A DNA stretch of 64,000 nucleotides from Acidimicrobiia bacterium (GTDB lineage: Bacteria; Actinomycetota; Acidimicrobiia; Spongiisociales; ZC4RG35), in the NCBI GenBank assembly GCA_035462175.1, contig DATHUP010000025.1:12447-76446 (forward strand), written 5' to 3'. Under the pieces are notes generated by a model. That model had not been told where the DNA came from. It saw only the letters and a list, made by a program, of their open reading frames with translations, and searched no databases. Below are positions 33,206 through 45,597 of this stretch, piece after piece. Numbering within the stretch: position 1 is the first letter of the stretch; every line of letters starts with the position of its first letter. The position numbers and the translations under genes were made by a program.

Positions 33206-33237
33206 AACCTACGCCTTCCAGCCGACTGGAAGGTCAA
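33206..33237 (-). promoter_or_regulatory. MerR-type promoter-operator, copy A (drives the ABC exporter operon)
   Basis: Minus strand reads TTGACC-TTCCAGTCGGCTGGAAGGCG-TAGGTT, with a 20-bp spacer. The palindrome has one central mismatch. The ATG at 33172 lies about 27 nt downstream of the predicted TSS and has a GGAAAGAGG SD. Confidence 0.65.
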
Positions 33238-33427: not shown

Positions 33428-33841
33428 TCACGATTCAGAAGCGTGCTCGCTCAGTGCGTCCACCACACGCTGCAATCGCACCAGGGCTTCGCTGGCCACA
33501 TGCTCCAAAGCTGGGTTGTTGGTCAGGCTGACCATCGTCGAAGGGTCGAGCACCGCAACCACGGTGCTCGTGCCGTCCTCATACACCACGACGTTGCAGG
33601 GCAGCAACAGGCCCACGTCTGCCTCTTTCTCCAAGGCTTCGGCAGCGAGGTGGGGGTTGCACGCTCCCAGGATGCGGTAGGGGCCCCGGGTCAGACCAAG
33701 CTTCGCTCGTAGGGTCTCGGCGACATCGATCTCGGTCAGGATTCCGAAACCCTCGTTGGTCAGAAGCTCTCTGACTCTGGCCTCCGCGGCCACCACGTCG
33801 AGGGTTGTCCTCGTCTTCAATCCGTATGCTGGCTGTGCCAA
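33428..33841 (-). CDS. DUF302-family protein
   Basis: 137 aa. LLTNEGFGILTEIDVAETLRAKLG..YRILGACNPHLA..LLPCNVVVYE matches DUF302. Confidence 0.75.
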   Translation of the reverse strand: MAQPAYGLKTRTTLDVVAAEARVRELLTNEGFGILTEIDVAETLRAKLGLTRGPYRILGACNPHLAAEALEKEADVGLLLPCNVVVYEDGTSTVVAVLDPSTMVSLTNNPALEHVASEALVRLQRVVDALSEHASES

Positions 33842-34089
33842 TGCGATTCCTCCTCAGCGGCTGCCGTGCGGCCGCTCAGACGCTCGGTCTCATGTTCGGC
33901 TCGTCGGTCGAACCACAGCATCATCATCACCATGCCAAGACATATCGCCAAGGCGAGACCGATGATGACACGGGGGATACTGCCGTCGAGCCGGAACAGA
34001 GCGATGGCACCGGCGGTCATCACCACCACTCCGACCCAAATCCAGAACAGGCCGGTCGGTCCAGACGCGAGGCGTTCGGTGGATCTCAC
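33817..34089 (-). CDS. small two-TM membrane protein with a His-containing tail (90 aa); not resolved by the ORF track
   Basis: The GTG at 34089 overlaps the cupredoxin stop (GTGA). Sequence: VRSTERLASGPTGLFWIWVGVVVMTAGAIALF..VIIGLALAICLGMVMMMLWF..EEESHWHSQHTD. Confidence 0.5.
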   Translation of the reverse strand: MRSTERLASGPTGLFWIWVGVVVMTAGAIALFRLDGSIPRVIIGLALAICLGMVMMMLWFDRRAEHETERLSGRTAAAEEESHWHSQHTD

Positions 34090-34457
34090 GACACCACCAC
34101 TTTGCCCCGAAGCATTCCCATCTGGCAGGCGAACTCGAAGACGCCGGCTTTGTCCGGCGTGAACTCGATGGGCACATTGGAGCCCTGGGGCAGCTCGGCA
34201 GAGACACCGAAGGTGTCGAAGACGACCCGCTCCGAGCAGGGGTCGGCCTCCTGGCGGTTGAAGATCAGCCGCACCGGCCGTCCCGCGCTGACCCTGATCG
34301 TGTCCGGGCTGTATCCACCTTTGACAACGACGAAAGCCTCCTGGGTCCCATCGCTGGTGACACCGGCGACGGTCCCTGTTGGCTTGGAGAGCCAGAAGTA
34401 CCAGACGATCAGTCCGATCAGGGCCAGGCCCCCCAGATTGACCAATACGACGTCCAT
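34086..34457 (-). CDS. membrane-anchored cupredoxin-like domain protein
   Basis: 123 aa. An N-terminal TM segment, then a cupredoxin_1-like core (VVVKGGYSPDTIRVSAGRPVRLIF..GVFEFACQMGMLRGKVVV). Its start overlaps the copA stop (TGATG). Confidence 0.7.
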   Translation of the reverse strand: MDVVLVNLGGLALIGLIVWYFWLSKPTGTVAGVTSDGTQEAFVVVKGGYSPDTIRVSAGRPVRLIFNRQEADPCSERVVFDTFGVSAELPQGSNVPIEFTPDKAGVFEFACQMGMLRGKVVVS

Positions 34458-36928
34458 CAGGAAACCTCCTCACGGTGGGTGGGTTTGAAGCGGCGGAGCC
34501 GATTGGCATTGGTGACCACGGTGACCGAGGAGAACGCCATGGCCGCCCCGGCGATCAGCGGGGAAAGCAGGATTCCCAGGGCCGGGTAGAGCACACCGGC
34601 CGCAACCGGAATGCCCAGGGTGTTGTAAGCGAACGCGCCCACCAGGTTCTGGTGGATGTTGCGCATCGTCGCCTGGGAAAGCTCGATGGCGGTGGCCACT
34701 CCGGTGAGCGACCCCTTGACCAGAGTGATGTCGCCCGACTCCATGGCGACGTCCGTGCCGGTGCCCATGGCCAGACCGACGTCGGCCTGGGCGAGAGCGG
34801 GGGCGTCGTTGATCCCGTCACCGACCATGGCCACCACCTTTCCTTCGGCTTGGAGGAGCTTGATCTGGGTCGCCTTCTCGTCGGGGAGCACTTCGGCCAG
34901 CACTCGATCGATTCCCACGCTTCGGGCGATGGCGGCTGCTGTGCGGTGGTTGTCCCCGGTGAGCATGACTACCTCCAAGCCGAGACGGTGAAGCCGGGCG
35001 ATGGCTTCGATCGAGTCGTCCTTGAGGGTGTCGGCGACCGCCACCGCCCCGGCGGGCTCGCCGTCGACGGCGATGACCATCGCAGTCTTCCCTTGTTCGG
35101 CAAGCGACTCGAGCTGGGACTCGGCAGGCCCGGCCGCGATTCCCCGATCGGCCATCAGCTTCAGAGTCCCCAGAACGACGTTGCGGCCGTCGACTCGGGC
35201 TTCGATCCCGTGGCCCGGCACCGCCGAGAACTGGTCGGGATCACTCAAGGCAAGCTCACGGTCGAGTGCAGCTCGTACGATCGCCTCTCCGAGTGGATGC
35301 TCCGAACCTCTTTCGGCGGAGGCGGCCAGCCGCAGGACTTCGTCTTCGGTGTAGCCCTCAAAGGCAGTGATATCGGTCAGGGACGGTTCACCGCGGGTGA
35401 TGGTGCCGGTCTTGTCCACCACAACCGTGTCGATACGGTGGGCAGTCTCCAGGGCGTCACCGGAGCGGATCAAGATCCCGTTCTCGGCGCCCTTCCCGAT
35501 CCCCACCATCAGCGAGGTCGGTGTGGCCAGACCGAGGGCGCAGGGGCAGGCGATCACCAGCACAGTGACCATCGTGATCACCGCGTACACGAGGGCCGGA
35601 GAAGGGCCGAAGGTGTACCAGGTCATGAAGGTGGCCACGGCCACGATCATCACCGCGGGGACGAAATACCCCGACACCTTGTCGACGGTGCGCTGGATCG
35701 GAGCTTTGGAGCCCTGGGCGTCGCGAACCATGCGAATGATCTGAGCCAGCATCGTCTCCTTGCCTACCCGGGTGGCCCGGAATCGGAAGGTGCCGGTGCG
35801 ATTGATGGTTGCTCCGATCACGGTGGCGCCTTCACCCTTCTCCACCGGGATCGGTTCCCCGGTGACCATCGATTCGTCCACGGCAGACGACCCTGAGACC
35901 ACCTGGCCGTCCACCGGGACCTTTTCCCCAGGGCGGACCACCACCACGTCCCCAACCACAACCTCATTCACCGGGATGTCGACCTCGCTCCCGTCACGTA
36001 CCACGCGGGCGGTTTTGGCCTGGAGACCGATCAACTTTTTCATCGCCTCCGAAGTGCGGGCCCGGGCGCGCAGTTCGAGCGCCGTACCCAACACCACCAG
36101 GGCGGTCACCACTGCGGTCACGTCATAAAAGACATCACGCAGCATCTCGTCGGGGAAGAACCCAGGGAATACGACCGCCGCCGTGGAGTACAACCAGGCG
36201 GCGGAGATCCCGGTGGCGATCAGGGTGTGCATATTCGCCGAGCGGTGTTTGAGAGCGCCCCACGCCCCCGTGAAGAACTGCGATCCGGACCAGGCCAGCA
36301 CCGGCAGGGTGAGAACACCCATCGCCAGCCAGATCCACCACAACGCAGTCGAACCCTTCGCCGGTATTCCGGGGAAGACCTCCGGATAGGAGAAGTAGAT
36401 CACCGGCAATGACACGATGGCAGCGAACCAGAACTTACGCATCAGCAGCCGGTAGCGGCGCTCCGACTCGACCCGCTCGGTGTCCGAAGTGTCGACGTCC
36501 CCTTCGATCGCCTCCGCCTGATAGCCGGCGCTGGCCACGGCCTCGGTCAGCACCGAGGCCGGCACCTCGTGGGCGGTGTCCACGGTGGCGGTGTTGGCAG
36601 CGAAGTTGACCCGGGCGTCGATCACCCCCGGTACCGCGCTCAAGGCGGTCTCCACCGTCGACACACACGAGCCGCAGGTCATTCCGCTCACGGACAGGTG
36701 GATGGCCCCGATCACTTCGGTTCGAGCGGAGGGAGGCTGGGCTGTGTCGTCAGTAGACGTGGCTGCCGTGTAACGCTCCGGGTCGGCCAAGAAGCTGCCT
36801 CGGCAGTGCTCCGAGCAGAACCCGAGCTCTGGATGCCCATCCGCGCGCAGCGCGGTGGAGCTCACCCTCATCCCACACACCGGATCACTGAGCTCGACGT
36901 CCTTCGATTTCGTGTTCATCACGTTCAT
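34457..36928 (-). CDS. copA: Cu(I)/Ag(I)-translocating P1B-1-type ATPase with N-terminal TRASH/YHS and HMA domains
   Basis: Starts at ATG 36928 ([26 protein letters not shown] = TRASH). GMTCGSCV is the HMA motif. Also present: [21 protein letters not shown], the YN-x4-P signature (AYNTLGIP) and the MxxSS signature (MAFSS). The track ORF extends to 37441, but that part is antisense to merR. Confidence 0.9.
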
Positions 36929-36934
36929 GTCGCC

Positions 36935-36966
36935 ACCGTACGCCTTCCAGTCGACTGGAATGTCAA
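36935..36966 (-). promoter_or_regulatory. MerR-type promoter-operator, copy B (PcopA, divergent from the regulator gene)
   Basis: Minus strand reads TTGACA-TTCCAGTCGACTGGAAGGCG-TACGGT. The copA ATG begins 7 nt after the -10, so the transcript is probably leaderless. On the + strand, TAAGAT (36971-36976) lies 6 nt before the merR ATG. Confidence 0.75.
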
Positions 36967-36982
36967 GGGGTAAGATGAACTC

Positions 36983-37444
36983 ATGAGAATTGGAGAACTG
37001 GCTAGACGCACCGGCGTGCCCACCAAGACGATCCGCTATTACGAAGAGGTCGGGGTGCTGCCCGCCCCGGAACGGTCGGCCAACGACTACCGCGACTATC
37101 CAGAAGAGGCCGTCGATCGTCTCGGGTTCGTGCGCGACGCCCAGGCCACGGGTCTCACCCTGGCCGAGATCGCCTCCATACTTGACCTTCGTGGCCAGGG
37201 TGAGGCCACTTGCCATCACGTCATCGAACTGCTCGAGGGTCACCTGACCGCCCTCGATCGACACATCCAGACCTTGCGTGAGACACGTAAGAAGTTGACC
37301 GCCCTCACCGAGCAGGCTCGAAGTCTCGACCCCTCCGAGTGTCGCGATCCCAACCGGTGTCAGACCATCACCGGAGAGATGAAGTTGAAGACCCGACATG
37401 GGGGACAGCACCTCCACACCGCTCCGGTAGGCCATAACCACTGA
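36983..37444 (+). CDS. MerR-family heavy-metal-responsive transcriptional regulator
   Basis: [26 protein letters not shown] is the HTH. Candidate metal ligands are Cys77-His78-His79 and Cys120-x5-Cys126, plus a His-rich tail ([15 protein letters not shown]). Confidence 0.9.
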
Positions 37445-37486: not shown

Positions 37487-37518
37487 TTGACATTCCAGTC
37501 GACTGGAAGCTGTACGGT
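37487..37518 (+). promoter_or_regulatory. MerR-type promoter-operator, copy C (drives the dehydrogenase gene)
   Basis: Plus strand reads TTGACA-TTCCAGTCGACTGGAAGCTG-TACGGT. It lies 43 nt after the merR stop and 35 nt before ATG 37553. Confidence 0.7.
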
Positions 37519-37552
37519 GACCAGGAAGGCCTCACCGAGAAGAGACGAAGCG

Positions 37553-38935
37553 ATGGGAAGTCTCAGAGCCATACCCGACATGACGACGACCATCCAGAAC
37601 GATTCGGTGCCGGTGAGCCCAGCAGTGACCCGGCCGGAAGGGGAACGCTGCCGGAACTCGCTGCACTCTCACGGCAACCCGCCGGTCACGTCCGAGGGTG
37701 GGGGTCTGCTCGATTGGGAAGCGGAGAGATTTCAGCGGGCCGCGCACCGGCTCGGGCTCGAACCAGCCTTGACCTGTGCCTTGCATTGCGCCAACCGGTC
37801 GGTGGAGGTGGAGATCCCCCTGAGACGGGACGATGGCAATCTCGAGGTCTATTCGGGCTATCGGGTGCAGCATTCCCGCGCTTTGGGCCCGGCCAAAGGC
37901 GGACTCCGTTATCACCCTTCGGTCACCGCCGGTGAGGTGACCGCCCTGGCCCGGTTGATGACCTGGAAGACCGCGCTGGCCGGGCTGCCTTTCGGCGGCG
38001 GCAAGGGCGGCATCCCGTGCGACCCGGGCAGTTTCTCAAAGGGGGAGCTGCGACGGCTCACATATGCCTACACCGAGGGAATCCTGCCTGTGATTGGCCC
38101 CGACACCGATGTGGTCGCCCCCGATGTCGGTACGGGTCCCGAGACGATGGGCTGGATCCTGGCTGCGGCCCACCAGGCCGGACAGGGCGACCCTCGGCTG
38201 GTCACCGGCAAGCCGGAGAATCTCGGCGGCAATCGCTTCCGAGCCAAGGCGACCGGTGTAGGCGTCGCCCATCTCGCCGAACTTGCCTACCACCACATCG
38301 GCGGCAGAGTGGATCGAGCGCGGGTGGCAGTGGAAGGCTTCGGGTCGGTGGGCCGCTGGGCCGCCCTGGAGCTCGCGGAACGGGGCGCCAGCATCGTCGC
38401 CGTGGCCGACGTGAGCGGCAGCATCTACTCCCCATACGGCCTCGACGTTTCATCCCTGATCGACTGGACAGCCGGGGGCGGCCCCCTGCTGGGGTACCCA
38501 AAGGCGAACATCTCCGAGGCGAGCGTCCTCGAGACTCCCTGTGACATCGTCATCGCCGCCGCCATGGAAGGAACCCTCACCACTGCGGTCGCTTCCCGGG
38601 TCACCGCCCGTCTGGTGGTGGAAGGGGCCAACGGACCCACCACCCCCCAAGCCGAAACCAGGCTTCATGAGTTGGGTGTCTCCGTGGTCCCTGACCTGGT
38701 CGCCAACGCCGGCGGGGTGATCTCGTCGTACTTCGAATGGGCCAATAGCCAACCGGGTCAGGCTTGGACCGAAGCCGAGGAAAGGCGCCGGGTCCTGGAT
38801 CGTCTCGGCCACATGTGGAGTCTTGTCGCCAACGAGGAGCCGGGCCAGTGGCGTGTGTCGGCGTTGACCCAGGCGATCGTCAGGGTTGTTGACGGTATGA
38901 GGGCCGCGGGGATCATCCAGCGGGCTTCGGGTTGA
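37553..38935 (+). CDS. Glu/Leu/Phe/Val dehydrogenase family protein (glutamate dehydrogenase-like) with an N-terminal extension
   Basis: YSGYRVQHSRALGPAKGGLRYHP..MTWKTALAGLPFGGGKGGI is the catalytic Lys/Gly-rich motif. VAVEGFGSVGRWAA is the Rossmann motif. The start is uncertain (ATG 37553 or 37580). Confidence 0.85.
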   Translation: MGSLRAIPDMTTTIQNDSVPVSPAVTRPEGERCRNSLHSHGNPPVTSEGGGLLDWEAERFQRAAHRLGLEPALTCALHCANRSVEVEIPLRRDDGNLEVYSGYRVQHSRALGPAKGGLRYHPSVTAGEVTALARLMTWKTALAGLPFGGGKGGIPCDPGSFSKGELRRLTYAYTEGILPVIGPDTDVVAPDVGTGPETMGWILAAAHQAGQGDPRLVTGKPENLGGNRFRAKATGVGVAHLAELAYHHIGGRVDRARVAVEGFGSVGRWAALELAERGASIVAVADVSGSIYSPYGLDVSSLIDWTAGGGPLLGYPKANISEASVLETPCDIVIAAAMEGTLTTAVASRVTARLVVEGANGPTTPQAETRLHELGVSVVPDLVANAGGVISSYFEWANSQPGQAWTEAEERRRVLDRLGHMWSLVANEEPGQWRVSALTQAIVRVVDGMRAAGIIQRASG

Positions 38936-39086
38936 GCGCCCACCCGCGGCGGCGGGCACGGACGGGAGGATTGGAAGGGTGAGATCCTGATTCGACTTCC
39001 GATTCTAGGGTTGTTCGTAGCATCAGCTGCGGGGCTGACGTTTAGGGATCGGCGTCGACCAGGGCTCTGAGTTGGGGCAGCGGTGT

Positions 39087-39395
39087 TCAGCCACGGGCGA
39101 GCATCCGGTCGATCTGGGCCTGGTACTGCTCCTGGGCCCGAATCATGTCCGGGTCGACCCACATCGGATCGGCCTCGATCATGGTGTTCATCGAGGAATG
39201 GGCGGTGACCCGCATCCGTTCCAGCATCCTGATGTCTCCGTCGAGCATCTCGACCTCCCCCGACTCGGTCACCATGGGAGCACGGGAGGACGGCTGGGCC
39301 GAACCAGGTGTGAAGCTCCCGCTCAATGCCGCCGCGGTCACCAACACTGCGATGAAAAGGACCCAGCTGGCTGTCGCGATCTTGAGGAACCTCAT
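39087..39395 (-). CDS. small secreted Met-rich protein (102 aa), candidate Cu(I)-binding
   Basis: Signal-peptide-like N-terminus (MRFLKIATASWVLFIAVLVTAAALSG). The mature part has 9 Met in about 75 aa (PMVTESGEVEMLDGDIRMLERMRVTAHSSMNTMIEADPMWVDPDM). A GAAAGG SD is present. Confidence 0.65.
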   Translation of the reverse strand: MRFLKIATASWVLFIAVLVTAAALSGSFTPGSAQPSSRAPMVTESGEVEMLDGDIRMLERMRVTAHSSMNTMIEADPMWVDPDMIRAQEQYQAQIDRMLARG

Positions 39396-39422
39396 GACGA
39401 ACCTTTCTATGGCTCTGTTGCG

Positions 39423-39454
39423 ATCGTACGCCTTCCAGTCGACTGGAATGTCAA
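39423..39454 (-). promoter_or_regulatory. MerR-type promoter-operator, copy D (drives the Met-rich protein gene)
   Basis: Minus strand reads TTGACA-TTCCAGTCGACTGGAAGGCG-TACGAT. It is identical to copy B across the -35 and spacer. Confidence 0.7.
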
Positions 39455-39516
39455 GGGACGGCCGCTACTCACGAGCTCGTCCCGACGGGCACTCTCGATC
39501 GAGAGGAATCCGGTGG

Positions 39517-39840
39517 TCAGTGATCGTGGTCGTGGGTGGTCGTCGTTACCGAAGAGAGCTCCGGTGGGGCCGTGCTCTCACCTGTGAGCAGAGGGCCGAT
39601 GTAGAGCGAGGAGAGCGTATAAGTGAGGGCGAAGACCAACATTGCGATCGCAGGCGCCGCCCAGGTGCCGAACCGTCGGTAGAGACGGATCAGCATTGGG
39701 GTGGCCAGCCCCATCCCGATCACGAAGAACAGGACCTGTCCTCCGGCCCCGGCGAGGATCGCGGCTCCGGCCAGCGGCCCAACATGGTGTAGGACGTGGG
39801 GAGCGACACCACTCACCGCTCCCCAGACCGCGGTGAGCAC
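39517..39840 (-). CDS. small membrane protein with a C-terminal HDHDH tail (107 aa)
   Basis: GTG 39840. Three TM segments (GAAILAGAGGQVLFFVIGMGLATPML; AAPAIAMLVFALTYTLSSLYIG). The tail is TTTHDHDH. The upstream part of track ORF 39517..40245 is shadow. Confidence 0.45.
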   Translation of the reverse strand: MLTAVWGAVSGVAPHVLHHVGPLAGAAILAGAGGQVLFFVIGMGLATPMLIRLYRRFGTWAAPAIAMLVFALTYTLSSLYIGPLLTGESTAPPELSSVTTTTHDHDH

Positions 39841-39887
39841 GTGACGGAGACGGCCCCTCTCATCGGATCTCGGCGTGGTGGCGGTGG

Positions 39888-40756
39888 TCAGGTCCTCGTC
39901 CCTTCTGTGGCTGCCAATGTTGCCATGGCGACCCCTTCGGTCGGGCTGCGACGTCCCAGTCTCCGGTACATGGCGATGCCAAACAACCCGGCAACCAGGC
40001 CGCTCAACTGGTTCCAGCTGAGCGGGCCGATGGCGGCGTCGCCGACCCGCAGGAAGTCGAGCAGGAAGCGTTGCAGCCCGTACCACGCCATCCACAGGGC
40101 GAAGAGTTGACCGTCTTGCATCGGGACGCGTCGTGCCCATACGACGAGAGCAATGAGCAAGACAGCGGCACCAATGAGGTCGTAAGCCGCCACCGGTTGA
40201 TAGACCCCGCACAGCCCGTCCGCTCTCGCCTGTGCCACGGTGCACTGGAGAGAGTTGTGTGCCGGGGCCACGCTGTACCCCGCCACCAACCCATAACCCC
40301 AGGGCAGCGATGTTGGTCTGCCCAGATGCTCAACTATTGCTAGACAGCCGAGTCTGCCGATCACGGTGCCCAGGGCGAGACCGTAGGTGGAGACATCGAG
40401 AGTGGGCAGGACAGGCATACCTAATGCCCTGATTCGCCACAGCCCGACCAGGATTCCGCCGGTGAATCCGCCGAGGATCGAGAAGTTCCCCGAAAGTGGG
40501 CTCAGCGCTGACCAGCCGGCGCCGTCCAACAAGGCGGCCGGGGCGGTGAGGTAGCGGCTCCGAGGAGGGCGCCCACCAAGGCCCAAGACACGACCGACTG
40601 GTACTTGTCCACGTCGCCGCCGGCTCGAGCGAGATGCCGTGAAGCCAGCCAGGCTCCGGCGAAGATACCGAGGGCGATGAAAAGCCCGTGGACCGACAGC
40701 TGGATCGGACCGAGATGGATAGGACCCAGCGGCGGGTAGGAAATCACAGCAATCAT
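39888..40756 (-). pseudogene. lgt: prolipoprotein diacylglyceryl transferase, split by an apparent 1-nt frameshift near 40555-40565
   Basis: The N-terminal 65 aa (MIAVISYPPLGPIHLGPIQLSVHGLFIALGIF..VSWALVGALLG) are in one frame. The remainder (SRYLTAPAAL..GNFSILGGFTGG..VIGRLGCLAIVEHLGRPTSLPWG) is in another frame, as track ORF 39888..40766. Confidence 0.7.
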
Positions 40757-40781
40757 GGACGTTCACGTACCGCGGGGTGGC

Positions 40782-41369
40782 TCACGTCCCCAGGGCGGCG
40801 TCGAGCTCATCGAGCAGCGACTCGGCGGGTACGAACATCTCGGCGTAGTGGCGAACCCAGGCGATCTCGCCGCTCTGCCTGACCAGGGCGAAGCTGTGGC
40901 TGGGTCGGTCGCCGTGGCCGTAGATACCGACCATGCCGTATGCGGCCGAGACTTCGGCTCCCGGATCGATGAGGATTGGACCGTCGATCCCGAACCTTGC
41001 CGCCTCGGCGGCGACCAAGGTTGCCGGGTCGATCATGATCGGGACCAGGCTCATTCCGCGTTCGGCCACCGCTGTGTCGAGCTCGGGGATCTGGGCGAAG
41101 CACCCGTCGCAGCCCACCCCCATGGAGAAGTAGAGGAGAGCGTCTCCTTGGGCGAGCGTCTCGTCGAGGGAAACGATCTGACCGTCGGCTGCGCTCAACT
41201 CGAACGGAATAGCCTGATCTATCTCGGCAGCGTCGGTCTCCGATAGGACGGACACGGCGACGAGCACCGCCAGAGCGAGGGGTGCGACGGCGAAGCCGAC
41301 CCACCTCCAGGGTGATCTCGGCCTGGGTTTGCGGCTACGCCCGCGTGGTGGCTGGATGGTCTTGGTCAT
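40782..41369 (-). CDS. membrane-anchored thioredoxin-fold redoxin (AhpC/TSA/TlpA-like)
   Basis: ATG 41369. An N-terminal TM anchor, then the CxxC motif in YFSMGVGCDGCFAQ. It is 25 nt upstream of lgt. Confidence 0.7.
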   Translation of the reverse strand: MTKTIQPPRGRSRKPRPRSPWRWVGFAVAPLALAVLVAVSVLSETDAAEIDQAIPFELSAADGQIVSLDETLAQGDALLYFSMGVGCDGCFAQIPELDTAVAERGMSLVPIMIDPATLVAAEAARFGIDGPILIDPGAEVSAAYGMVGIYGHGDRPSHSFALVRQSGEIAWVRHYAEMFVPAESLLDELDAALGT

Positions 41370-42258
41370 GACAGCTCCGTTCGTCTGTTTCTTCGTTCTC
41401 GAGGCGGCGATGCCGCCGCCGGGTCGACAATGCGATTGCGGCCAGTGCGACCGCGATGAGGAACAAGCCGATGACCGGGTCGGGGATCCAGGCAAGACCA
41501 TCGAGCACGGGAGTGAGGAACCCCTCGATTCCGGTGCCCAGGCTGGCGCTGAACGAGGGTGCCAGGGACGATCCTGTCACCGCAACAACCGCCAGCACGA
41601 CGGCCATGACCAGGAACATCACCGCCGCCACCAGACCGGCGGTAGTCGTCGCCACGCGCAGGAAACCCACATTGAAAGCCACCGGCCTGGACCCGATCTG
41701 GACCCGATCAGGCCCCAGTCGGTCCCAGAGCAGGGTGAGGATTATCAGCGGGAACACCATCCCGAACACGTAGGCCAACCCGATGCCGACCCCGGCGGCG
41801 ATGCCGGGCGACACTGCCGACAGCGTGAGGACGCCGGCGAGGACCGGGGCGCAACAGGCGCTGGCGGCACCCGAGAACACTCCGAGGGCAAAGATCCCGG
41901 CCGAGTCGGTTCGAGAGATGTCGGGGGATCCCCTGAGGAAGGGAAGTGACCAGGTGCCCCCGCTCAATGAGACGACTGCGAGTACGAGCAGGAGGGCGGC
42001 TCCGAGACCGTATACCGCGGTGTGATAGCGCAGCAGGCTCTCGGTGAGGAGGCTGAGCCCGAGTGTCACCGGGATCAGCACGAGGGCAACCCCGGCGGCG
42101 AACACGAATGCCAGCGGGACCAGACGCCAACGGTGATTGCGGACCGAAGCCGCCAGGAAGGCGGGGAACATCACGACTATGCAGCATGGAGCGAACAGAG
42201 CCACCGACCCGGCCACAAAGGCCGCGAGCAGGGATCCTCCGAGGAACAGACCTTCCAC
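41335..42258 (-). CDS. DsbD/CcdA-family transmembrane thiol-disulfide transporter-like protein with vicinal Cys-Cys motifs
   Basis: GTG 42258 lies 1 nt after the glutaredoxin-like stop. 6-8 TM segments. LFAPCCIVVMFP and GAASACCAPVLAG lie in TM helices. Confidence 0.65.
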   Translation of the reverse strand: MEGLFLGGSLLAAFVAGSVALFAPCCIVVMFPAFLAASVRNHRWRLVPLAFVFAAGVALVLIPVTLGLSLLTESLLRYHTAVYGLGAALLLVLAVVSLSGGTWSLPFLRGSPDISRTDSAGIFALGVFSGAASACCAPVLAGVLTLSAVSPGIAAGVGIGLAYVFGMVFPLIILTLLWDRLGPDRVQIGSRPVAFNVGFLRVATTTAGLVAAVMFLVMAVVLAVVAVTGSSLAPSFSASLGTGIEGFLTPVLDGLAWIPDPVIGLFLIAVALAAIALSTRRRHRRLENEETDERSCHDQDHPATTRA

Positions 42259-42259
42259 C

Positions 42260-42535
42260 TCAGACCGCCACGTCGTTGGATAGCTGGGCCAGATGTTCTT
42301 CCAGTTTGCGGCGGGAGATGCGCCCGTATCCGAAGAACGCGTCATCCACCAGGAGGATCGGTGGGAAGGGGACCTGATGACGCACCAACAGCCCGAGACC
42401 TTCTTCCGAGGAGAGCGGCACCGTTCTCACCGTGAGCGGCGTCACTGTTCCCAGCTCGGCGAGCAGTCGGTCGACTTCCTCGCAGAAGTGACAGCCCGGA
42501 GCGTTGACCAGGACGATGTCAACCGGATCGGTCAT
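42260..42535 (-). CDS. glutaredoxin/thioredoxin-fold small protein (CHFC)
   Basis: MTDPVDIVLVNAPGCHFCEEVDRLL.., 91 aa. Its ATG overlaps the csoR stop (ATGA). Confidence 0.7.
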   Translation of the reverse strand: MTDPVDIVLVNAPGCHFCEEVDRLLAELGTVTPLTVRTVPLSSEEGLGLLVRHQVPFPPILLVDDAFFGYGRISRRKLEEHLAQLSNDVAV

Positions 42536-42852
42536 ACCCCAGCCTCGGCGGTTGCCGTTACGGGGAGGCAATGGTGTGCCTCGCCGTTATGGGGCGCCGA
42601 GCCAAAGGCGGCTGTCAGCAGCTCGTCGACTATGTCCTCGATGCGTCCCTCGGCCACCGCCTCGGGCACACAGCCACGCAGATGAGCTTCGAGCACTTCA
42701 CGACGCACTCGTTCCAGCGCCCCTTGCACCGCCGACAGCTGGTGGAGCACGTCGATGCAGTAGCGATCGTCGTCGACCATGCGGATCACCCCGTCGAGAT
42801 GCCCGCGTGCGGTACGCAGACGGAATGCGACGGACGAGGCCGCAGCCCTCAA
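42532..42852 (-). CDS. csoR: CsoR/RcnR-family metal-sensing repressor with the Cu(I)-type C-H-C signature
   Basis: RLRTARGHLDGVIRMVDDDRYCIDVLHQLSAVQ..EAHLRGC gives Cys-x24-His-x3-Cys. Its TTG start overlaps the SHOCT stop (TTGA). Confidence 0.85.
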   Translation of the reverse strand: MRAAASSVAFRLRTARGHLDGVIRMVDDDRYCIDVLHQLSAVQGALERVRREVLEAHLRGCVPEAVAEGRIEDIVDELLTAAFGSAPHNGEAHHCLPVTATAEAGV

Positions 42853-43088
42853 GAGCCGGTCCGACGAGACTCGACGAGGATCCGCTTCCGCTCCTCGAAC
42901 TCCTCCCTTTCGATCTCCCCACCGGCATATCGGCGTTCGAGAACGCTGAGAGCGTCTGGTGTGGAGCTACCGCCGGTCGTCGTTGCTGATCGAACGGCCC
43001 AAATGAGCAGGGCGATGATCGTCCCCCAAAACAGGATCATCATCGTCCAGCCGAAGAACCCCATCGTGTTCCAGTCAAACCACATCAT
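42849..43088 (-). CDS. SHOCT-domain membrane protein
   Basis: 79 aa. An N-terminal TM segment, then LSVLERRYAGGEIEREEFEERKRIL (SHOCT motif). A GAGGTG SD is present. Confidence 0.75.
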   Translation of the reverse strand: MMWFDWNTMGFFGWTMMILFWGTIIALLIWAVRSATTTGGSSTPDALSVLERRYAGGEIEREEFEERKRILVESRRTGS

Positions 43089-43114
43089 CTGATATCACCT
43101 CGATGGAGATCATG

Positions 43115-43131
43115 CCCCACCCCGGGTGGGG
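43115..43131. promoter_or_regulatory. candidate CsoR operator (G/C-tract palindrome)
   Basis: CCCCACCC-C-GGGTGGGG has perfect 8-bp arms. It lies 27 nt upstream of the SHOCT-csoR operon start codon. Confidence 0.55.
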
Positions 43132-43301
43132 TAGGGCAGAGGCGAAAGTCCCTATCGGGCGAGAGGTGAGGCCGGGACGCTCTCCTGTGTGGGCAGCTTC
43201 GGAGAGCGGTGGCGTCGAGGTGATCTAGCGTCCCCGGCAGTCGAGACACCTGGTGGTCAGGAGCTGGGTTACCGCCGAGTGTTCCGGTCCGGGTTCTGAT
43301 A

Positions 43302-43750
43302 GTGGGACCCGTCGCCTACGCCTCGATGGTGATCCTGCTCCGGGTGTCCGGAAAGAGGACGCTGTCGAAGATGAATGCGTTCGACCTGGTGGTGACGATC
43401 TCACGGGGTCGGTTCTCGCCACCGTCCTGACCGACCGGACATTGGCGCTGCTGACCGGCGTCACCGTGATCGCAGTGCTGATCGCCTGCCAGTTCGTCAT
43501 CACCGCGCTTTCGGTTCGTCTTCCCGCGGTAGAACGCTTCGTCAAGGCAGAGCCGAGTCTGCTGGTCCGCGACAGCCGGCTCCTCCTAAAGGCGATGAGG
43601 CAATCCAGGGTCACAGAAGGAGAAGTGCTGGCGGCGGTTCGTGAAGCTGGAATCGCCTCGTTAGCGGACGTCGCCGAGGCGGTGCTCGAGACGGATGGCT
43701 CCGTGACCGTCGTTCAGGCTTCAGCCCGTTCGAAGGACGAGGCGAGCTGA
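43302..43750 (+). pseudogene. DUF421 (YetF-like) membrane protein, apparent 1-nt frameshift near 43400-43406
   Basis: Frame A reads VGPVAYASMVILLRVSGKRTLSKMNAFDLVVTIS, then hits a stop. Frame B continues TGSVLATVLTDRTLALLTG..EPSLLVRDSRLLLKAMRQSRVTEGEVLAAVREAGIASLADVAEAVLETDGSVTV. Confidence 0.6.
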
Positions 43751-43792: not shown

Positions 43793-44443
43793 TCAGCCAG
43801 ACAAGTCGGCCGCGATGGCGGCAACCTCCGACGGCTCGGCCCGACGACGGTGGTTGAGGTCCACGAATGCGTAGCGGATCATGCCCTTGCGATCGATCAC
43901 GTATGTGGCCGGAATCGGCAGCTCCCACTTCCCGGTGCCGTTCAACGTCCCGATGTCACGGCCATGGTCGAGATACATCTCGATGTTCTCGGGGATCATC
44001 TCGTAGACGAGATTGAACTGCTTGGCCACCAGGTTGTCGTAGTCGGAGAGGACCGGGAACTCGAGCTCGAGCTTCTCGACCGTGCTCATGGTGACGTCCG
44101 GCGTATTGGGCGAGATCGCCACCAGGGTGGCCCCCGCCGACTCGACTTCGCCGAGCGCGCGCTGCAACCCGCGCAGCTCGAGGTTGCAGAAAGGGCACCA
44201 TTGACCGCGATAGAAGGAGACGATCACCGGGCCTTTCTCCCGCAGGTCGGCCAACCGGACCGGGCGGCCCATCGCGTCGGGAAGTTCGAAGTCGGGGGCG
44301 GTGTCTCCCTCCCGAAGCACCCGTTCTTCGATTCCGGACGCCTCGAGAGCTTCGGCTGCCCTCTCGTACATGGCCCGACGCTCCGGAGGGAGATCGGCCC
44401 AACCCTGTGACGCTCGCTGTGCGAGCTCTTCGGCCAGACTCAT
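43793..44443 (-). CDS. peroxiredoxin-like (AhpC/TSA family) protein
   Basis: GDTAPDFELPDAMGRPVRLADL..GPVIVSFYRGQWCPFCNLEL. Confidence 0.8.
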   Translation of the reverse strand: MSLAEELAQRASQGWADLPPERRAMYERAAEALEASGIEERVLREGDTAPDFELPDAMGRPVRLADLREKGPVIVSFYRGQWCPFCNLELRGLQRALGEVESAGATLVAISPNTPDVTMSTVEKLELEFPVLSDYDNLVAKQFNLVYEMIPENIEMYLDHGRDIGTLNGTGKWELPIPATYVIDRKGMIRYAFVDLNHRRRAEPSEVAAIAADLSG

Positions 44444-44530
44444 CCCGCCAGGTTAAGCCATGACATTCGCCTCTCCCGCCAGGACTCTGAAATGCGTCTC
44501 CGCCAACTGATAGTGGACACCGAGCCCCTG

Positions 44531-44890
44531 ATGGCGGTGCTGGGCGGAGGTTTGGTCGGATCTGCCGCCCGGGCCGGGATCGGCCAGGTCTTACCGACCG
44601 CGCCAGGTGCGTTTCCCGTCGCCACCTTGATGGTGAATCTCATCGGGTCGCTTTTCCTCGGCGTCTATCTCGCCCGCAGGGAACGCGCCGCGACGATCCG
44701 TTGGTCGCTTCAGTTCTGGGCGATCGGAGTGCTGGGATCGTTCACGACCTTCTCCGCCTTCAGCCTCGACGTCGTTCATCTCCTCGATGCCAATCGGCCA
44801 ATGCCGGCCCTCGGCTACGTGACTGCCTCCGTCATCGGAGGGCTGCTCCTCGCTCTGACCGGCCAAAGACTCGGCTCGAGCTTCCGATGA
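44531..44890 (+). CDS. crcB: fluoride channel CrcB/FluC, subunit 1
   Basis: MAVLGGGLVGSAARAGIG..ATLMVNLIGSLFLG..GVLGSFTTFSAFS. The track start at 44492 is probably too far upstream. Confidence 0.85.
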   Translation: MAVLGGGLVGSAARAGIGQVLPTAPGAFPVATLMVNLIGSLFLGVYLARRERAATIRWSLQFWAIGVLGSFTTFSAFSLDVVHLLDANRPMPALGYVTASVIGGLLLALTGQRLGSSFR

Positions 44891-45237
44891 CGCTTCTGCT
44901 CGCGACACTCGCCGGTGCTGTCGGGGCGGTATGCCGATATCTCCTCTCCGGATGGGTGCAGCAGCAAACGCGGTCGGATTTCCCGCTGGGAACACTCGCC
45001 GTCAACCTGGTCGGAGCGTTCCTCCTCGGTCTCCTCGCCGGGACCGAGGCGCTTCAGTCGGCGGCGGCTCTGGCCGGTGCCGGATTCCTCGGAGGTTTCA
45101 CCACCTTCTCGACATGGATGATCGAAACCATTCGACTCGGCATCCCACCCCTCAGAGGGAGAGCCGTGGCCAACCTCGCCCTCACCTTCCTCGCCGGCGT
45201 CGCGCTCGCCGCAGTCGGCTATAGCCTGACCAACTGA
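44887..45237 (+). CDS. crcB: fluoride channel CrcB/FluC, subunit 2
   Basis: Its ATG overlaps the upstream TGA (ATGA). LAGAVGAVCRYLL..LAVNLVGAFLLG..FLGGFTTFSTW. Confidence 0.85.
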   Translation: MTLLLATLAGAVGAVCRYLLSGWVQQQTRSDFPLGTLAVNLVGAFLLGLLAGTEALQSAAALAGAGFLGGFTTFSTWMIETIRLGIPPLRGRAVANLALTFLAGVALAAVGYSLTN

Positions 45238-45246
45238 CGGGAGAAA

Positions 45247-45597
45247 ATGATGGACCAACAGTCAGACGCCCGGTTGCTCCGGATCTTCATCGGCGAGTCC
45301 GATACCTACGACGGACGCCCGCTCTATCAAGCCATCGTCGAGACTCTTCGGCGGGAGGGTCTGGCCGGAACCACGGTTCTCAGGGGAATCGAAGGTTTTG
45401 GCAAATCCAGCCGCCTCCACACCGCCCACATCCTTCGCCTCTCCGAGGACCTTCCCATCGTCATCGAATGCGTCGACACGGGCGACAAGGTCGAGGCCGT
45501 GCTCCCCGCCCTCGACGAGATGATCGGTGATGGCCTGGTCACCCTGGAACGAGTCGAAGTCCGCGTCTACCGGGCCGGTACAGACGACACCAGCTGA
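45247..45597 (+). CDS. DUF190-family (PII-like) protein commonly linked to crcB
   Basis: LLRIFIGESDTYDGRPLYQAIVETLRREGLAGTTVLRGIEGFG. Confidence 0.8.
   Translation: MMDQQSDARLLRIFIGESDTYDGRPLYQAIVETLRREGLAGTTVLRGIEGFGKSSRLHTAHILRLSEDLPIVIECVDTGDKVEAVLPALDEMIGDGLVTLERVEVRVYRAGTDDTS

Follow-up and report, generated by a model that had tools for sequence, protein, structure and literature searches.

Copper kills bacteria largely through attack on thiols, and to our knowledge the copper-induced envelope reductase systems described so far, Scs and DsbDEG, all come from a small number of Gram-negative models. In this work we analyse a stretch of 64,000 nucleotides from an Acidimicrobiia bacterium (assembly GCA_035462175.1, contig DATHUP010000025.1), referred to below as the window. 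It carries an operon with genes for a SHOCT-domain protein, a CsoR-family repressor, a small thioredoxin-fold redoxin, a CcdA-like membrane protein, a membrane-anchored redoxin, a prolipoprotein diacylglyceryl transferase (lgt) and a His-tailed membrane protein. Judging from sequence comparisons, and with somewhat more confidence than doubt, we read this operon as a copper-derepressed transmembrane thiol-reducing relay under CsoR.

Among described systems, Scs (ScsABCD) of Salmonella, Proteus and Caulobacter is alike in that a copper-induced membrane electron transporter (ScsB, of the DsbD family) is reported to feed envelope thioredoxin-fold reductases, which give protection from copper (PMC3322552, PMC10907172). 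The module in the window differs from Scs in lacking the periplasmic domains of ScsB and a DsbA/DsbG-like ScsC, in having a ResA-like partner, and in possessing a Gram-positive-type anchor, a cytoplasmic redoxin of its own, doubled cysteines and CsoR control. A preliminary description of the locus had called it conceptually like Scs or the CcdA/TlpA systems. The similarity of scheme stands, but the features that mark a member of Scs are absent, and the module appears to work like Scs without belonging to that family.

DsbRS-DsbDEG of Pseudomonas aeruginosa is similar as well, because a copper sensor turns on a DsbD-family conduit together with envelope thioredoxin-fold proteins, and the system is needed for copper resistance. 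There, however, the sensor is a two-component system that senses the periplasm, and the protein subfamilies differ. CcdA-ResA of B. subtilis and CcdA-Etrx of S. pneumoniae likewise combine a CcdA of the type with six transmembrane (TM) segments with a thioredoxin-fold reductase tethered to the outer side of the Gram-positive cell membrane. In those pairs general thioredoxin is the electron donor, and the reducing power goes to cytochrome c maturation or to methionine sulfoxide reductase, whereas the window module has its own redoxin, an extra TM segment and a Cys-His tail, PCC and ACCAP motifs, and a home in a copper island.

In Corynebacterium glutamicum, the CopRS regulon cg3286-cg3289 includes a tlpA thioredoxin-like gene, so that this actinobacterial copper stimulon also contains an envelope thioredoxin-like protein (PMC3140484). 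Control is exerted there by a two-component system, the operon has neither a CcdA-like protein nor a small redoxin, and CsoR is tied to the ctpV pump. On the regulatory side, the cso operon of Mycobacterium tuberculosis (csoR-Rv0968-ctpV-Rv0970) shares with the window operon a PF02583 repressor with x-C-H-C ligands, a Tyr/Glu shell and a C-terminal tail, as well as an operon layout suited to autoregulation, the promoter bearing a G/C-tract pseudo-palindrome. Unlike the cso operon, the window operon has no P-type ATPase or CopZ, its csoR comes second after the SHOCT gene, and the tail of the repressor carries His-His-Cys.

Full-text literature searches, with partial journal coverage, returned no report of a CsoR heading a CcdA/thioredoxin module and no earlier account of the gene set, in agreement with the preliminary description, which did not know it as a described system; an account outside that coverage may exist. 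Papers on the copper responses of Streptomyces mirabilis (plasmid pI), Kineococcus and Alteromonas that were checked do not mention the module. For comparison we used a scan of one genome per species, which yielded 320 confirmed relatives of the CcdA-like protein. The best 80 of these 320 loci and six further ones (86 in all) were scored by homology to the window proteins, with neighbours counted within about 7 kb.

Organization of the operon

ORF listing, translation and family scans place seven co-directional genes on the minus strand, from 43088 to 39517. The SHOCT-domain protein comes first (43088-42849; 79 aa, ATG start), followed by the CsoR-family repressor (42852-42532; 106 aa, TTG start), the small CHFC thioredoxin-fold protein (42535-42260; 91 aa, ATG start) and the CcdA-like polytopic membrane protein (42258-41335; 307 aa, GTG start). 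The membrane-anchored CDGC redoxin (41369-40782; 195 aa, ATG start), a frameshifted lgt paralog (40756-39888) and a three-TM protein with a His-rich tail (39840-39517; 107 aa from a GTG, with an alternative CTG start at 39891) complete the series.

The genes are tightly joined, exactly as first described: SHOCT and csoR overlap in TTGA, csoR and the small redoxin gene overlap in ATGA, and a single nucleotide separates the latter from the gene of the CcdA-like protein. This gene in turn overlaps that of the anchored redoxin by 35 nt, and a gap of 25 nt leads to lgt. The junction between lgt and the His-tailed gene is a 47-nt gap if the GTG is the start and a 4-nt CTGA overlap if the CTG is; the ortholog in the related locus L011 has TTGA at this junction.

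The putative redox relay

For the membrane protein there are more than 2,700 homologs, entered by their sources as 'cytochrome c biogenesis protein CcdA'; some of these carry weak PF02683 matches. A family profile built from 17 sequences matches Thermus CcdA (PDB 5VKV; E 3e-6) from TM1 to TM5, the only solved relative. In this alignment the first Cys of FAPCC (C25) and the first Cys of SACCAP (C135) fall on the two active cysteines of CcdA, in keeping with the CcdA-like identity proposed at the outset. The second Cys of each pair (C26, C136) is extra; it is invariant in the CcdA-like family and absent from canonical CcdA. A further conserved motif, S-C-H-D/E (C296, H297), follows an Arg-rich stretch past the last hydrophobic segment, and by the positive-inside rule this stretch would place the tail in the cytoplasm. 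About seven hydrophobic segments are predicted by a hydropathy scan (canonical CcdA has six TM segments, 3+3), and the protein has no soluble periplasmic domains. An AlphaFold2 model built from the 17-sequence alignment was unusable, with a mean predicted local distance difference test score of 52 and a predicted template modelling score of 0.38.

Searched against 1.84 billion representative proteins, the profile gave 960 matches at E <=1e-3 and 111 at E <=1e-30, and the CcdA-like proteins form a small, distinct subfamily. Natural fusions occur within it. P0278 combines, in this order, a CcdA-like protein, a TM segment and a redoxin, and in P0256 and P0305 a CcdA-like domain is joined through a His-rich or CPMHP-type/YHS-like linker to a CopB-type (CPH) P-type ATPase. 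The Cellulomonas homolog keeps PCC, ACCAP and the Cys-His tail, and that of S. mirabilis keeps both pairs with a CC tail instead.

The anchored redoxin matches Pfam Redoxin (6e-11) and AhpC-TSA (1e-9). It has one TM segment (residues 24-42) and no lipobox Cys. With a profile of 26 redoxin sequences, the best PDB match is B. subtilis ResA (E 1.3e-15), peroxiredoxins score lower, and Sco reaches only about 0.01. ResA is the classical outer partner of CcdA. The membrane-anchored CDGC redoxin of the preliminary description is thus recovered with its N-terminal anchor, its motif and ResA as closest relative. In the alignment C42, C45 and H113 are invariant, the CxxC being mostly CDGC. The candidate cis-Pro, P111, is present in at least 90% of the sequences and absent from the Burkholderia and Streptomyces forms; H113, two residues past it in a P-S-H-S-F loop, is invariant even in these.

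The small redoxin has no TM segment and should be cytoplasmic. Across 25 sequences its CxxC, its cis-Pro (P59) and G71 do not vary, it has a GxGR motif, and archaeal protein disulfide oxidoreductase, small thioredoxins and NrdH are the nearest solved proteins that its profile matches. It had been described as a CHFC glutaredoxin-fold protein. The thioredoxin fold with CxxC and cis-Pro holds, but no glutaredoxin family model is passed (Pfam Glrx-like gives 19.5 bits against a cutoff of 26). We also considered a class I glutaredoxin and rejected it, as there is no CPYC-type site and the Grx model is not passed; 'small thioredoxin-fold redoxin' fits better.

These homologies to CcdA, ResA and small thioredoxins, with CxxC and cis-Pro in both soluble partners, are consistent with the cytoplasm-to-envelope reducing pathway that had been suggested for the operon. 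In such a relay, the cytoplasmic CxxC redoxin would hand electrons to the CcdA-type protein, a direction suggested by homology and context. The CcdA-type protein would then reduce the ResA/TlpA-like redoxin anchored on the outward side of the membrane, and this redoxin could keep extracytoplasmic cysteines, its presumed substrates, reduced, or restore them to that state, when copper oxidises or caps them.

Several observations weigh against a thiol-reducing relay. The CcdA-like protein of the window has no Pfam or NCBIfam match at E 0.01-0.1 and fails the Pfam DsbD model, and the window copy of lgt is broken. The doubled cysteines and the Cys-His tail are unneeded for electron transfer and recall thiolate-lined metal paths. 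The redoxin has its invariant His beside the active-site loop, and the small redoxin carries C-H-x-C, in the form C-H-(F/L/Y)-C, in 70 of 78 sequences. Lastly, the fusions of CcdA-like domains to CopB-type ATPases point to copper transport more than to protein repair. The doubled cysteines of the CcdA-like protein, which the preliminary description did not remark on, in particular leave a copper-handling role open beside electron transfer.

The trio of small redoxin, CcdA-like protein and anchored redoxin could then handle Cu(I) itself, with a C-H-x-C chaperone inside, a thiolate path made of the four membrane-embedded cysteines and the Cys-His tail, and an outer Cys2-His redoxin that receives or donates the metal, working alone or beside a CopA/CopB pump while CsoR control is unchanged. 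The vicinal cysteines of MerT and MerF play such a part for Hg(II). We consider this unlikely, though it is the main rival of the relay. It would account for the invariant PCC and ACCAP pairs, for the S-C-H-D/E tail and for His113 of the redoxin, which lies in an H-S-F-x-L-V motif that presumably resembles the His-ligand region of Sco. It is also in line with the CopB-type (CPH) fusions. In five loci (L005, L006, L010, L018 and L019) CopB-type ATPase genes accompanied by a second csoR paralog run divergently to the SHOCT-csoR operon, the partner of this csoR in L010 being a His-rich ATPase of CopB type, and this arrangement, too, suits copper handling. Moreover, a glutaredoxin is reported to serve as a Cu(I) chaperone (PMC7057996). 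However, the best homologs of all three proteins are redox proteins, the cis-Pro of redox-active thioredoxin folds is retained, and the Sco-family matches are weak (E about 0.01). A passive thiolate path would have no obvious energy source for export, and importing copper under copper stress makes little sense.

A more specific form of this idea, which we hold to be doubtful, is that the PCC/ACCAP protein is an unrecognised copper-handling membrane protein with a thiolate-lined, possibly redox-gated Cu(I) path that forms part of export. Reduced cysteines would bind Cu(I) on the inside, and disulfide formation on the outside would release it. The path could exchange copper with the C-H-x-C chaperone and the Cys2-His acceptor and could be bolted onto CopB-type pumps.

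CsoR and its putative operator

The regulator that would govern the thiol-reducing relay matches Pfam PF02583 (Trns_repr_metal) with E 4e-25 and 88.5 bits against a cutoff of 22.8; the NCBIfam RicR model gives 2.5e-18, under its cutoff. Its best solved relative is M. tuberculosis CsoR (PDB 2HH7; E 8e-20). The Cu(I)-type Cys-x24-His-x3-Cys signature noted earlier is confirmed by the 2HH7 alignment, in which Cys32, His57 and Cys61 coincide with the Cu(I)-binding residues Cys36, His61 and Cys65 of the M. tuberculosis protein, and the triad is kept in 24 of 26 in-operon CsoR orthologs. Tyr35 and Glu81 make up the second-shell allosteric network of M. tuberculosis CsoR, and Tyr31 and Glu77 of the window protein align with them. 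The fingerprint of copper sensors is x-C-H-C, and the persulfide-sensor CstR clusters have x-C-x-C (PMC8643695). By its residues, the repressor is predicted to be an x-C-H-C copper-type, Cu(I)-sensing CsoR.

The otherwise variable C-terminal tail of the in-operon CsoR clade (42532-42610 in the window) contains a conserved His-His-Cys. We know of no part for this fourth cysteine in the classical Cu(I) site.

Established targets of CsoR are copA/copZ operons and, among mycobacteria, further copper genes. The operon in the window has no P-type ATPase or CopZ gene. The copA gene lies 2.6 kb away behind a MerR-type promoter without a CsoR site, in line with the departure from the usual copZA-type efflux control that had been noticed at first.

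Upstream of the operon, the palindrome CCCCACCC-C-GGGTGGGG is present exactly at 43115-43131, within an operator-like G/C-tract pseudo-palindrome of CsoR type at 43115-43132 that reads ACCCCACCCGGGGTGGGG on the minus strand. It occurs once in the window at up to three mismatches. Taken by itself, a perfect palindrome with 8-bp arms is no rarer than chance, since 11 palindromes with arms of at least 8 bp were observed in the window against 8.8 expected from first-order Markov simulations. We therefore dropped the palindrome alone as evidence. Its significance comes from its position and its conservation across species: each of the 27 related loci that have csoR within the operon carries a near-invariant core, ACCCC(A/T)CC-N-GGGGTGGG, ahead of its leading gene, and 24 different versions of the site occur among them. 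Between the promoter-proximal end of the site and the start codon of that gene there are usually 25-29 nt (25-65 nt for most of the loci), and in the window there are 27 nt to the SHOCT ATG. One of the 27 loci is that of Demequina sp. SO4-13, whose CcdA-like protein is 66% identical to that of the window. The window site also resembles the operator of M. tuberculosis CsoR, as cited in PMC10318464, in support of the likeness to CsoR operators proposed before. In L064 an operator site stands directly before the small redoxin gene of an operon without csoR, and in L018 and L019 two tandem copies lie in the intergenic region shared with the divergent csoR paralog.

The operator is directly abutted by a −10-like hexamer, CATGAT (43109-43114, minus strand), and a Shine-Dalgarno sequence, GAGGTGA, follows at 43095-43101. 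Orthologous loci have TAGCGT, TTATCT or similar at the same offset, with A at position 2 in 11 and T at position 6 in 16 of the 24 variants. A consensus sigma-70 scan of 38900-43400 found no promoter, and terminator matches there were at chance level; the −10 assignment is accordingly drawn from the cross-locus alignment. With a 14-bp minimum, a repeat search reported nothing. No further CsoR-type site was found in the 64-kb window, which suggests that within it the CsoR regulon is this operon only.

Based on what is known of the family, CsoR would bind the G/C-tract operator abutting the −10 at low cytoplasmic Cu(I) and block transcription, and Cu(I) bound at Cys32, His57 and Cys61 would release it.

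Just upstream of CsoR-type and MerR-type promoters alike, these islands have a conserved stretch that reads (A)GGGnCTTTCGGCCCT(A/G)CC. The window carries it at about 43133-43165 on the minus strand, as GGGACTTTCGCCTCTGCC, and again at the 33216 promoter; it is also present in L007, L009, L012, L014, L020, L023, L028, L051 and L064. The stretch may act like an UP element, be bound by a third factor or belong to a shared promoter cassette.

The regulator might instead be a thiol-reactive member of the CsoR family, either CstR-like or an oxidant sensor, and the operon a response to envelope thiol oxidation or sulfur stress. Two-Cys members of the family sense persulfides (PMC8643695), a Thermus CsoR-family protein controls sox genes adjoining a ccdA (PMC10318464), the tail of this CsoR clade holds an extra conserved Cys (HHC), and DUF302 and peroxiredoxin genes occur in the neighbourhood. 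Yet the His of the triad and the Tyr/Glu second shell are conserved here, where CstR clusters have x-C-x-C, and the site before the operon is a G/C-tract operator as expected for CsoR. Genes for a sulfurtransferase, SQR or persulfide dioxygenase are absent nearby, and copper ATPases, a cupredoxin and copper regulators dominate the context. We regard a thiol sensor as distinctly improbable.

Distribution and regulatory wiring of the trio

By definition of the sample, the CcdA-like protein is present in all 86 loci. The redoxin is found in 84 of them and the small redoxin in 82; where one of the two is missing, the trio mostly lies near a contig end. The SHOCT protein follows in 47 loci, a CopA-like ATPase in 43 and CsoR in 36. 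Response regulators and histidine kinases were counted in 35 and 31 loci, respectively, an ABC transporter pair in about 22, the His-rich TM protein in 20, MerR-family regulators and cupredoxins in 17 each, lgt in 12 and CopY in 8. Synteny of csoR, the small redoxin gene, ccdA-like and redoxin genes, which had been proposed as a check on the operon, is therefore found and is widespread among these loci. The conserved unit is the redoxin trio, often with SHOCT, and it is not specific to CsoR. Carriers among the 86 loci belong to the Actinomycetota and the Proteobacteria.

The trio stands behind several kinds of control gene. The SHOCT-CsoR head occurs in 27 loci. In L051 and L028 a MerR-type promoter directly precedes a SHOCT-like gene and the trio, and a long string of copA, cupredoxin, ABC transporter and trio genes is seen in, for example, L024, L051 and L057. 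CopY with an M56 peptidase heads the module in L034, L052 and the S. mirabilis plasmid pI, and cueR does so on Burkholderia contaminans plasmids. Relatives with a two-component head (L029, L062, L078-L083 and a Cellulomonas plasmid, the latter also with adjoining lgt, DUF305 and P-type ATPase genes) have a wiring like that of DsbRS. The true two-component systems near the trio were identified by homology; pairs of about 230 aa and 497 aa upstream of it, at first candidates for such systems, were rejected as ABC ATPase and permease pairs. The trio is wired to four types of metal regulator, which is strong circumstantial evidence for a copper function.

This distribution also bears on the possibility that the module performs housekeeping maturation, in which the CcdA and ResA/TlpA-like proteins would serve cytochrome c or CuA/Sco-dependent oxidase assembly and the metal genes would be adjacent by chance. 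The name given to the membrane protein by its sources and the position of ResA as the best solved relative of the redoxin favour it. However, no ccsA/ccsB (resB/resC), sco or cox was among the called genes of the examined loci, where no search was aimed at these. The module is found on plasmids and in copper islands, with up to four copies in one metagenome-assembled genome, it is paired with four kinds of metal-responsive regulators, and its membrane protein belongs to a small, distinct subfamily with doubled cysteines. Cytochrome c maturation was rejected as the main function, given the copper-island and plasmid context and the called genes without ccsBA or sco (no dedicated search), and the housekeeping explanation as a whole is very improbable.

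The genome with four paralogous copies is SMAG_U14487, another member of the Acidimicrobiia (loci L006, L007, L009 and L015). Two independent assemblies of the strain of the window (L087 and L088) break inside or right after the genes for the CcdA-like protein and the redoxin, as expected for a region that is multi-copy or variable between strains.

Accessory genes

The SHOCT protein has a C-terminal SHOCT domain (PF09851; 28.1 bits against a cutoff of 27), a Met/Trp-rich N-terminus and one TM segment at residues 11-29. Its gene comes first in the CsoR-headed loci, and also in several loci headed by MerR-type or two-component regulators.

The lgt gene is present as first described, but a one-base deletion breaks its reading frame. 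The first 84 codons (40756-40502) are in one frame and the remainder (to 39888) is in another, with PF01790 matched by both halves. DNA alignment with the intact lgt of L011 places the missing base, a C from a run of three, at about 40556-40557; elsewhere in the gene the differences from the L011 ortholog are mostly synonymous. An identical split is called in the ENA assembly ERZ27272640, which is probably from the same sample, and the only Logan contig found stops short of the frameshift site. Either the gene became a pseudogene very recently, or the two assemblies, probably of one sample, have a sequence error in common. Elsewhere lgt is an accessory of the trio, adjoining it on a Cellulomonas plasmid.

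The last gene encodes the His-tailed TM protein of the preliminary description, with three TM segments and a C-terminal TTTTHxHxH tail. It has no Pfam or NCBIfam match. Its 864 homologs, mostly of 123-128 aa, are all 'hypothetical' or misnamed, and an invariant APHVLHHVGPLAGAA motif accompanies the tail. In the 20 loci that have it, the gene comes after the redoxin gene or lgt.

The SHOCT protein, the extra Lgt and the His-rich membrane protein fit the envelope protection that a thiol-reducing relay would provide. In the case of Lgt, the thiol of the lipobox has to be free for the enzyme to act. Acylation of lipoproteins is impaired by copper in E. coli (PMC6538781).

The surrounding copper island

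A second palindrome points to an island with two regulators. The 16-bp palindrome TTCCAGTCGACTGGAA occurs four times in the window against 0.45 expected, at 33216-33231 (with one mismatch), 36945-36960, 37493-37508 and 39433-39448, and 21 related loci have it too. All four copies are embedded in promoters built as TTGAC(A/C), 20 bp, TA(C/G)G(G/A/T)T (TACGGT, TACGAT or TAGGTT). Such a long spacer (20 bp) is the geometry of promoters activated by MerR-family proteins. The copy at 33216 drives an ABC transporter on the minus strand, that at 36945 copA (apparently leaderless) and a cupredoxin gene on the minus strand, that at 37493 glutamate dehydrogenase on the plus strand, and that at 39433 a Met-rich secreted protein on the minus strand, whose gene comes right after the operon.

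The four sites are presumably read by a MerR-family regulator encoded divergently from copA (36983-37444, plus strand). This regulator matches Pfam MerR_1 and MerR-DNA-bind and carries C77, C120 and C126; the NCBIfam models CadR-PbrR (the best), CueR and MerR all score under their cutoffs. CopA itself (34457-36928, minus strand) is a P1B ATPase of Cu(I) type with YHS and HMA domains by Pfam. It scores 614 on the NCBIfam copper-translocating ATPase model (cutoff 397), and its motifs CPC, N-x6-YN-x4-P and P-x6-M-x2-SS are those of P1B-1, the Cu(I) type. A cupredoxin-like protein follows (34086-34457, minus strand). With a TTCCAGTCGACTGGAA promoter at copA and a CsoR site at the thiol operon, the pump would be under the MerR-type regulator and the thiol module under CsoR.

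A role of the module with a different thiophilic metal, such as Hg(II), Ag(I) or Cd(II), along the lines of MerT/MerP uptake, is the least probable explanation. In its favour, vicinal Cys pairs in membrane helices are typical of Hg(II) transporters, and with a CxxC partner on each side they recall MerT/MerF/MerP; the neighbouring MerR-family regulator has the MerR-like Cys77/Cys120/Cys126 and scores best, if under cutoff, on CadR-PbrR. Against it, no sequence homology to these Mer proteins was found, and the fold in the window is CcdA-like. No mer genes lie nearby, and neither merA nor merB appeared among the genes called or annotated in the loci examined, where no search was aimed at these two. 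The in-operon sensor is a Cu(I)-type CsoR, the motifs of the neighbouring pump are P1B-1 ones of Cu(I) type and its score clears the copper ATPase model, and other loci use cueR and copY.

The remaining genes of the island may be described briefly. The secreted Met-rich protein (102 aa; 39087-39395, minus strand), recognised from its ORF and a signal-like TM segment, lies outside the CsoR operon. Its promoter consists of TTGACA, 20 bp containing TTCCAGTCGACTGGAA, and TACGAT, and the same gene order is found in L011. The protein has no family assignment and adjoins the module in seven loci. A DUF302 protein (33428-33841, minus strand) is encoded downstream of copA and the cupredoxin gene. Glutamate dehydrogenase (37493-38935, plus strand; real start about 37553) is an odd member of a regulon behind a MerR-type metal promoter, and its homologs adjoin the module in L008, L014 and L023. 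On the other side of the operon, a DUF421 gene (43253-43750) and an AhpC/TSA peroxiredoxin gene (43793-44443, minus strand) lie between it and a fluoride-export-type cluster of two crcB genes and a DUF190 gene (44492-45597, plus strand). An Rfam scan of the whole window gave no matches, the fluoride riboswitch included.

Implications

A compact module distinct from Scs and DsbDEG recurs in copper islands and on plasmids of Actinomycetota and Proteobacteria. Its carriers include the cultivable Demequina sp. SO4-13, Cellulomonas sp. C5510, Pengzhenrongella frigida, Streptomyces mirabilis and Burkholderia contaminans. The doubled cysteines, the Cys-His tail and the CopB fusions frame the question of whether the module is an electron conduit, a copper conduit or both. 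If the copper path were true, the module would be a new component of bacterial copper export and not one of protein repair. The recurrent extra lgt also links copper stress to lipoprotein lipidation in Gram-positive-type envelopes.

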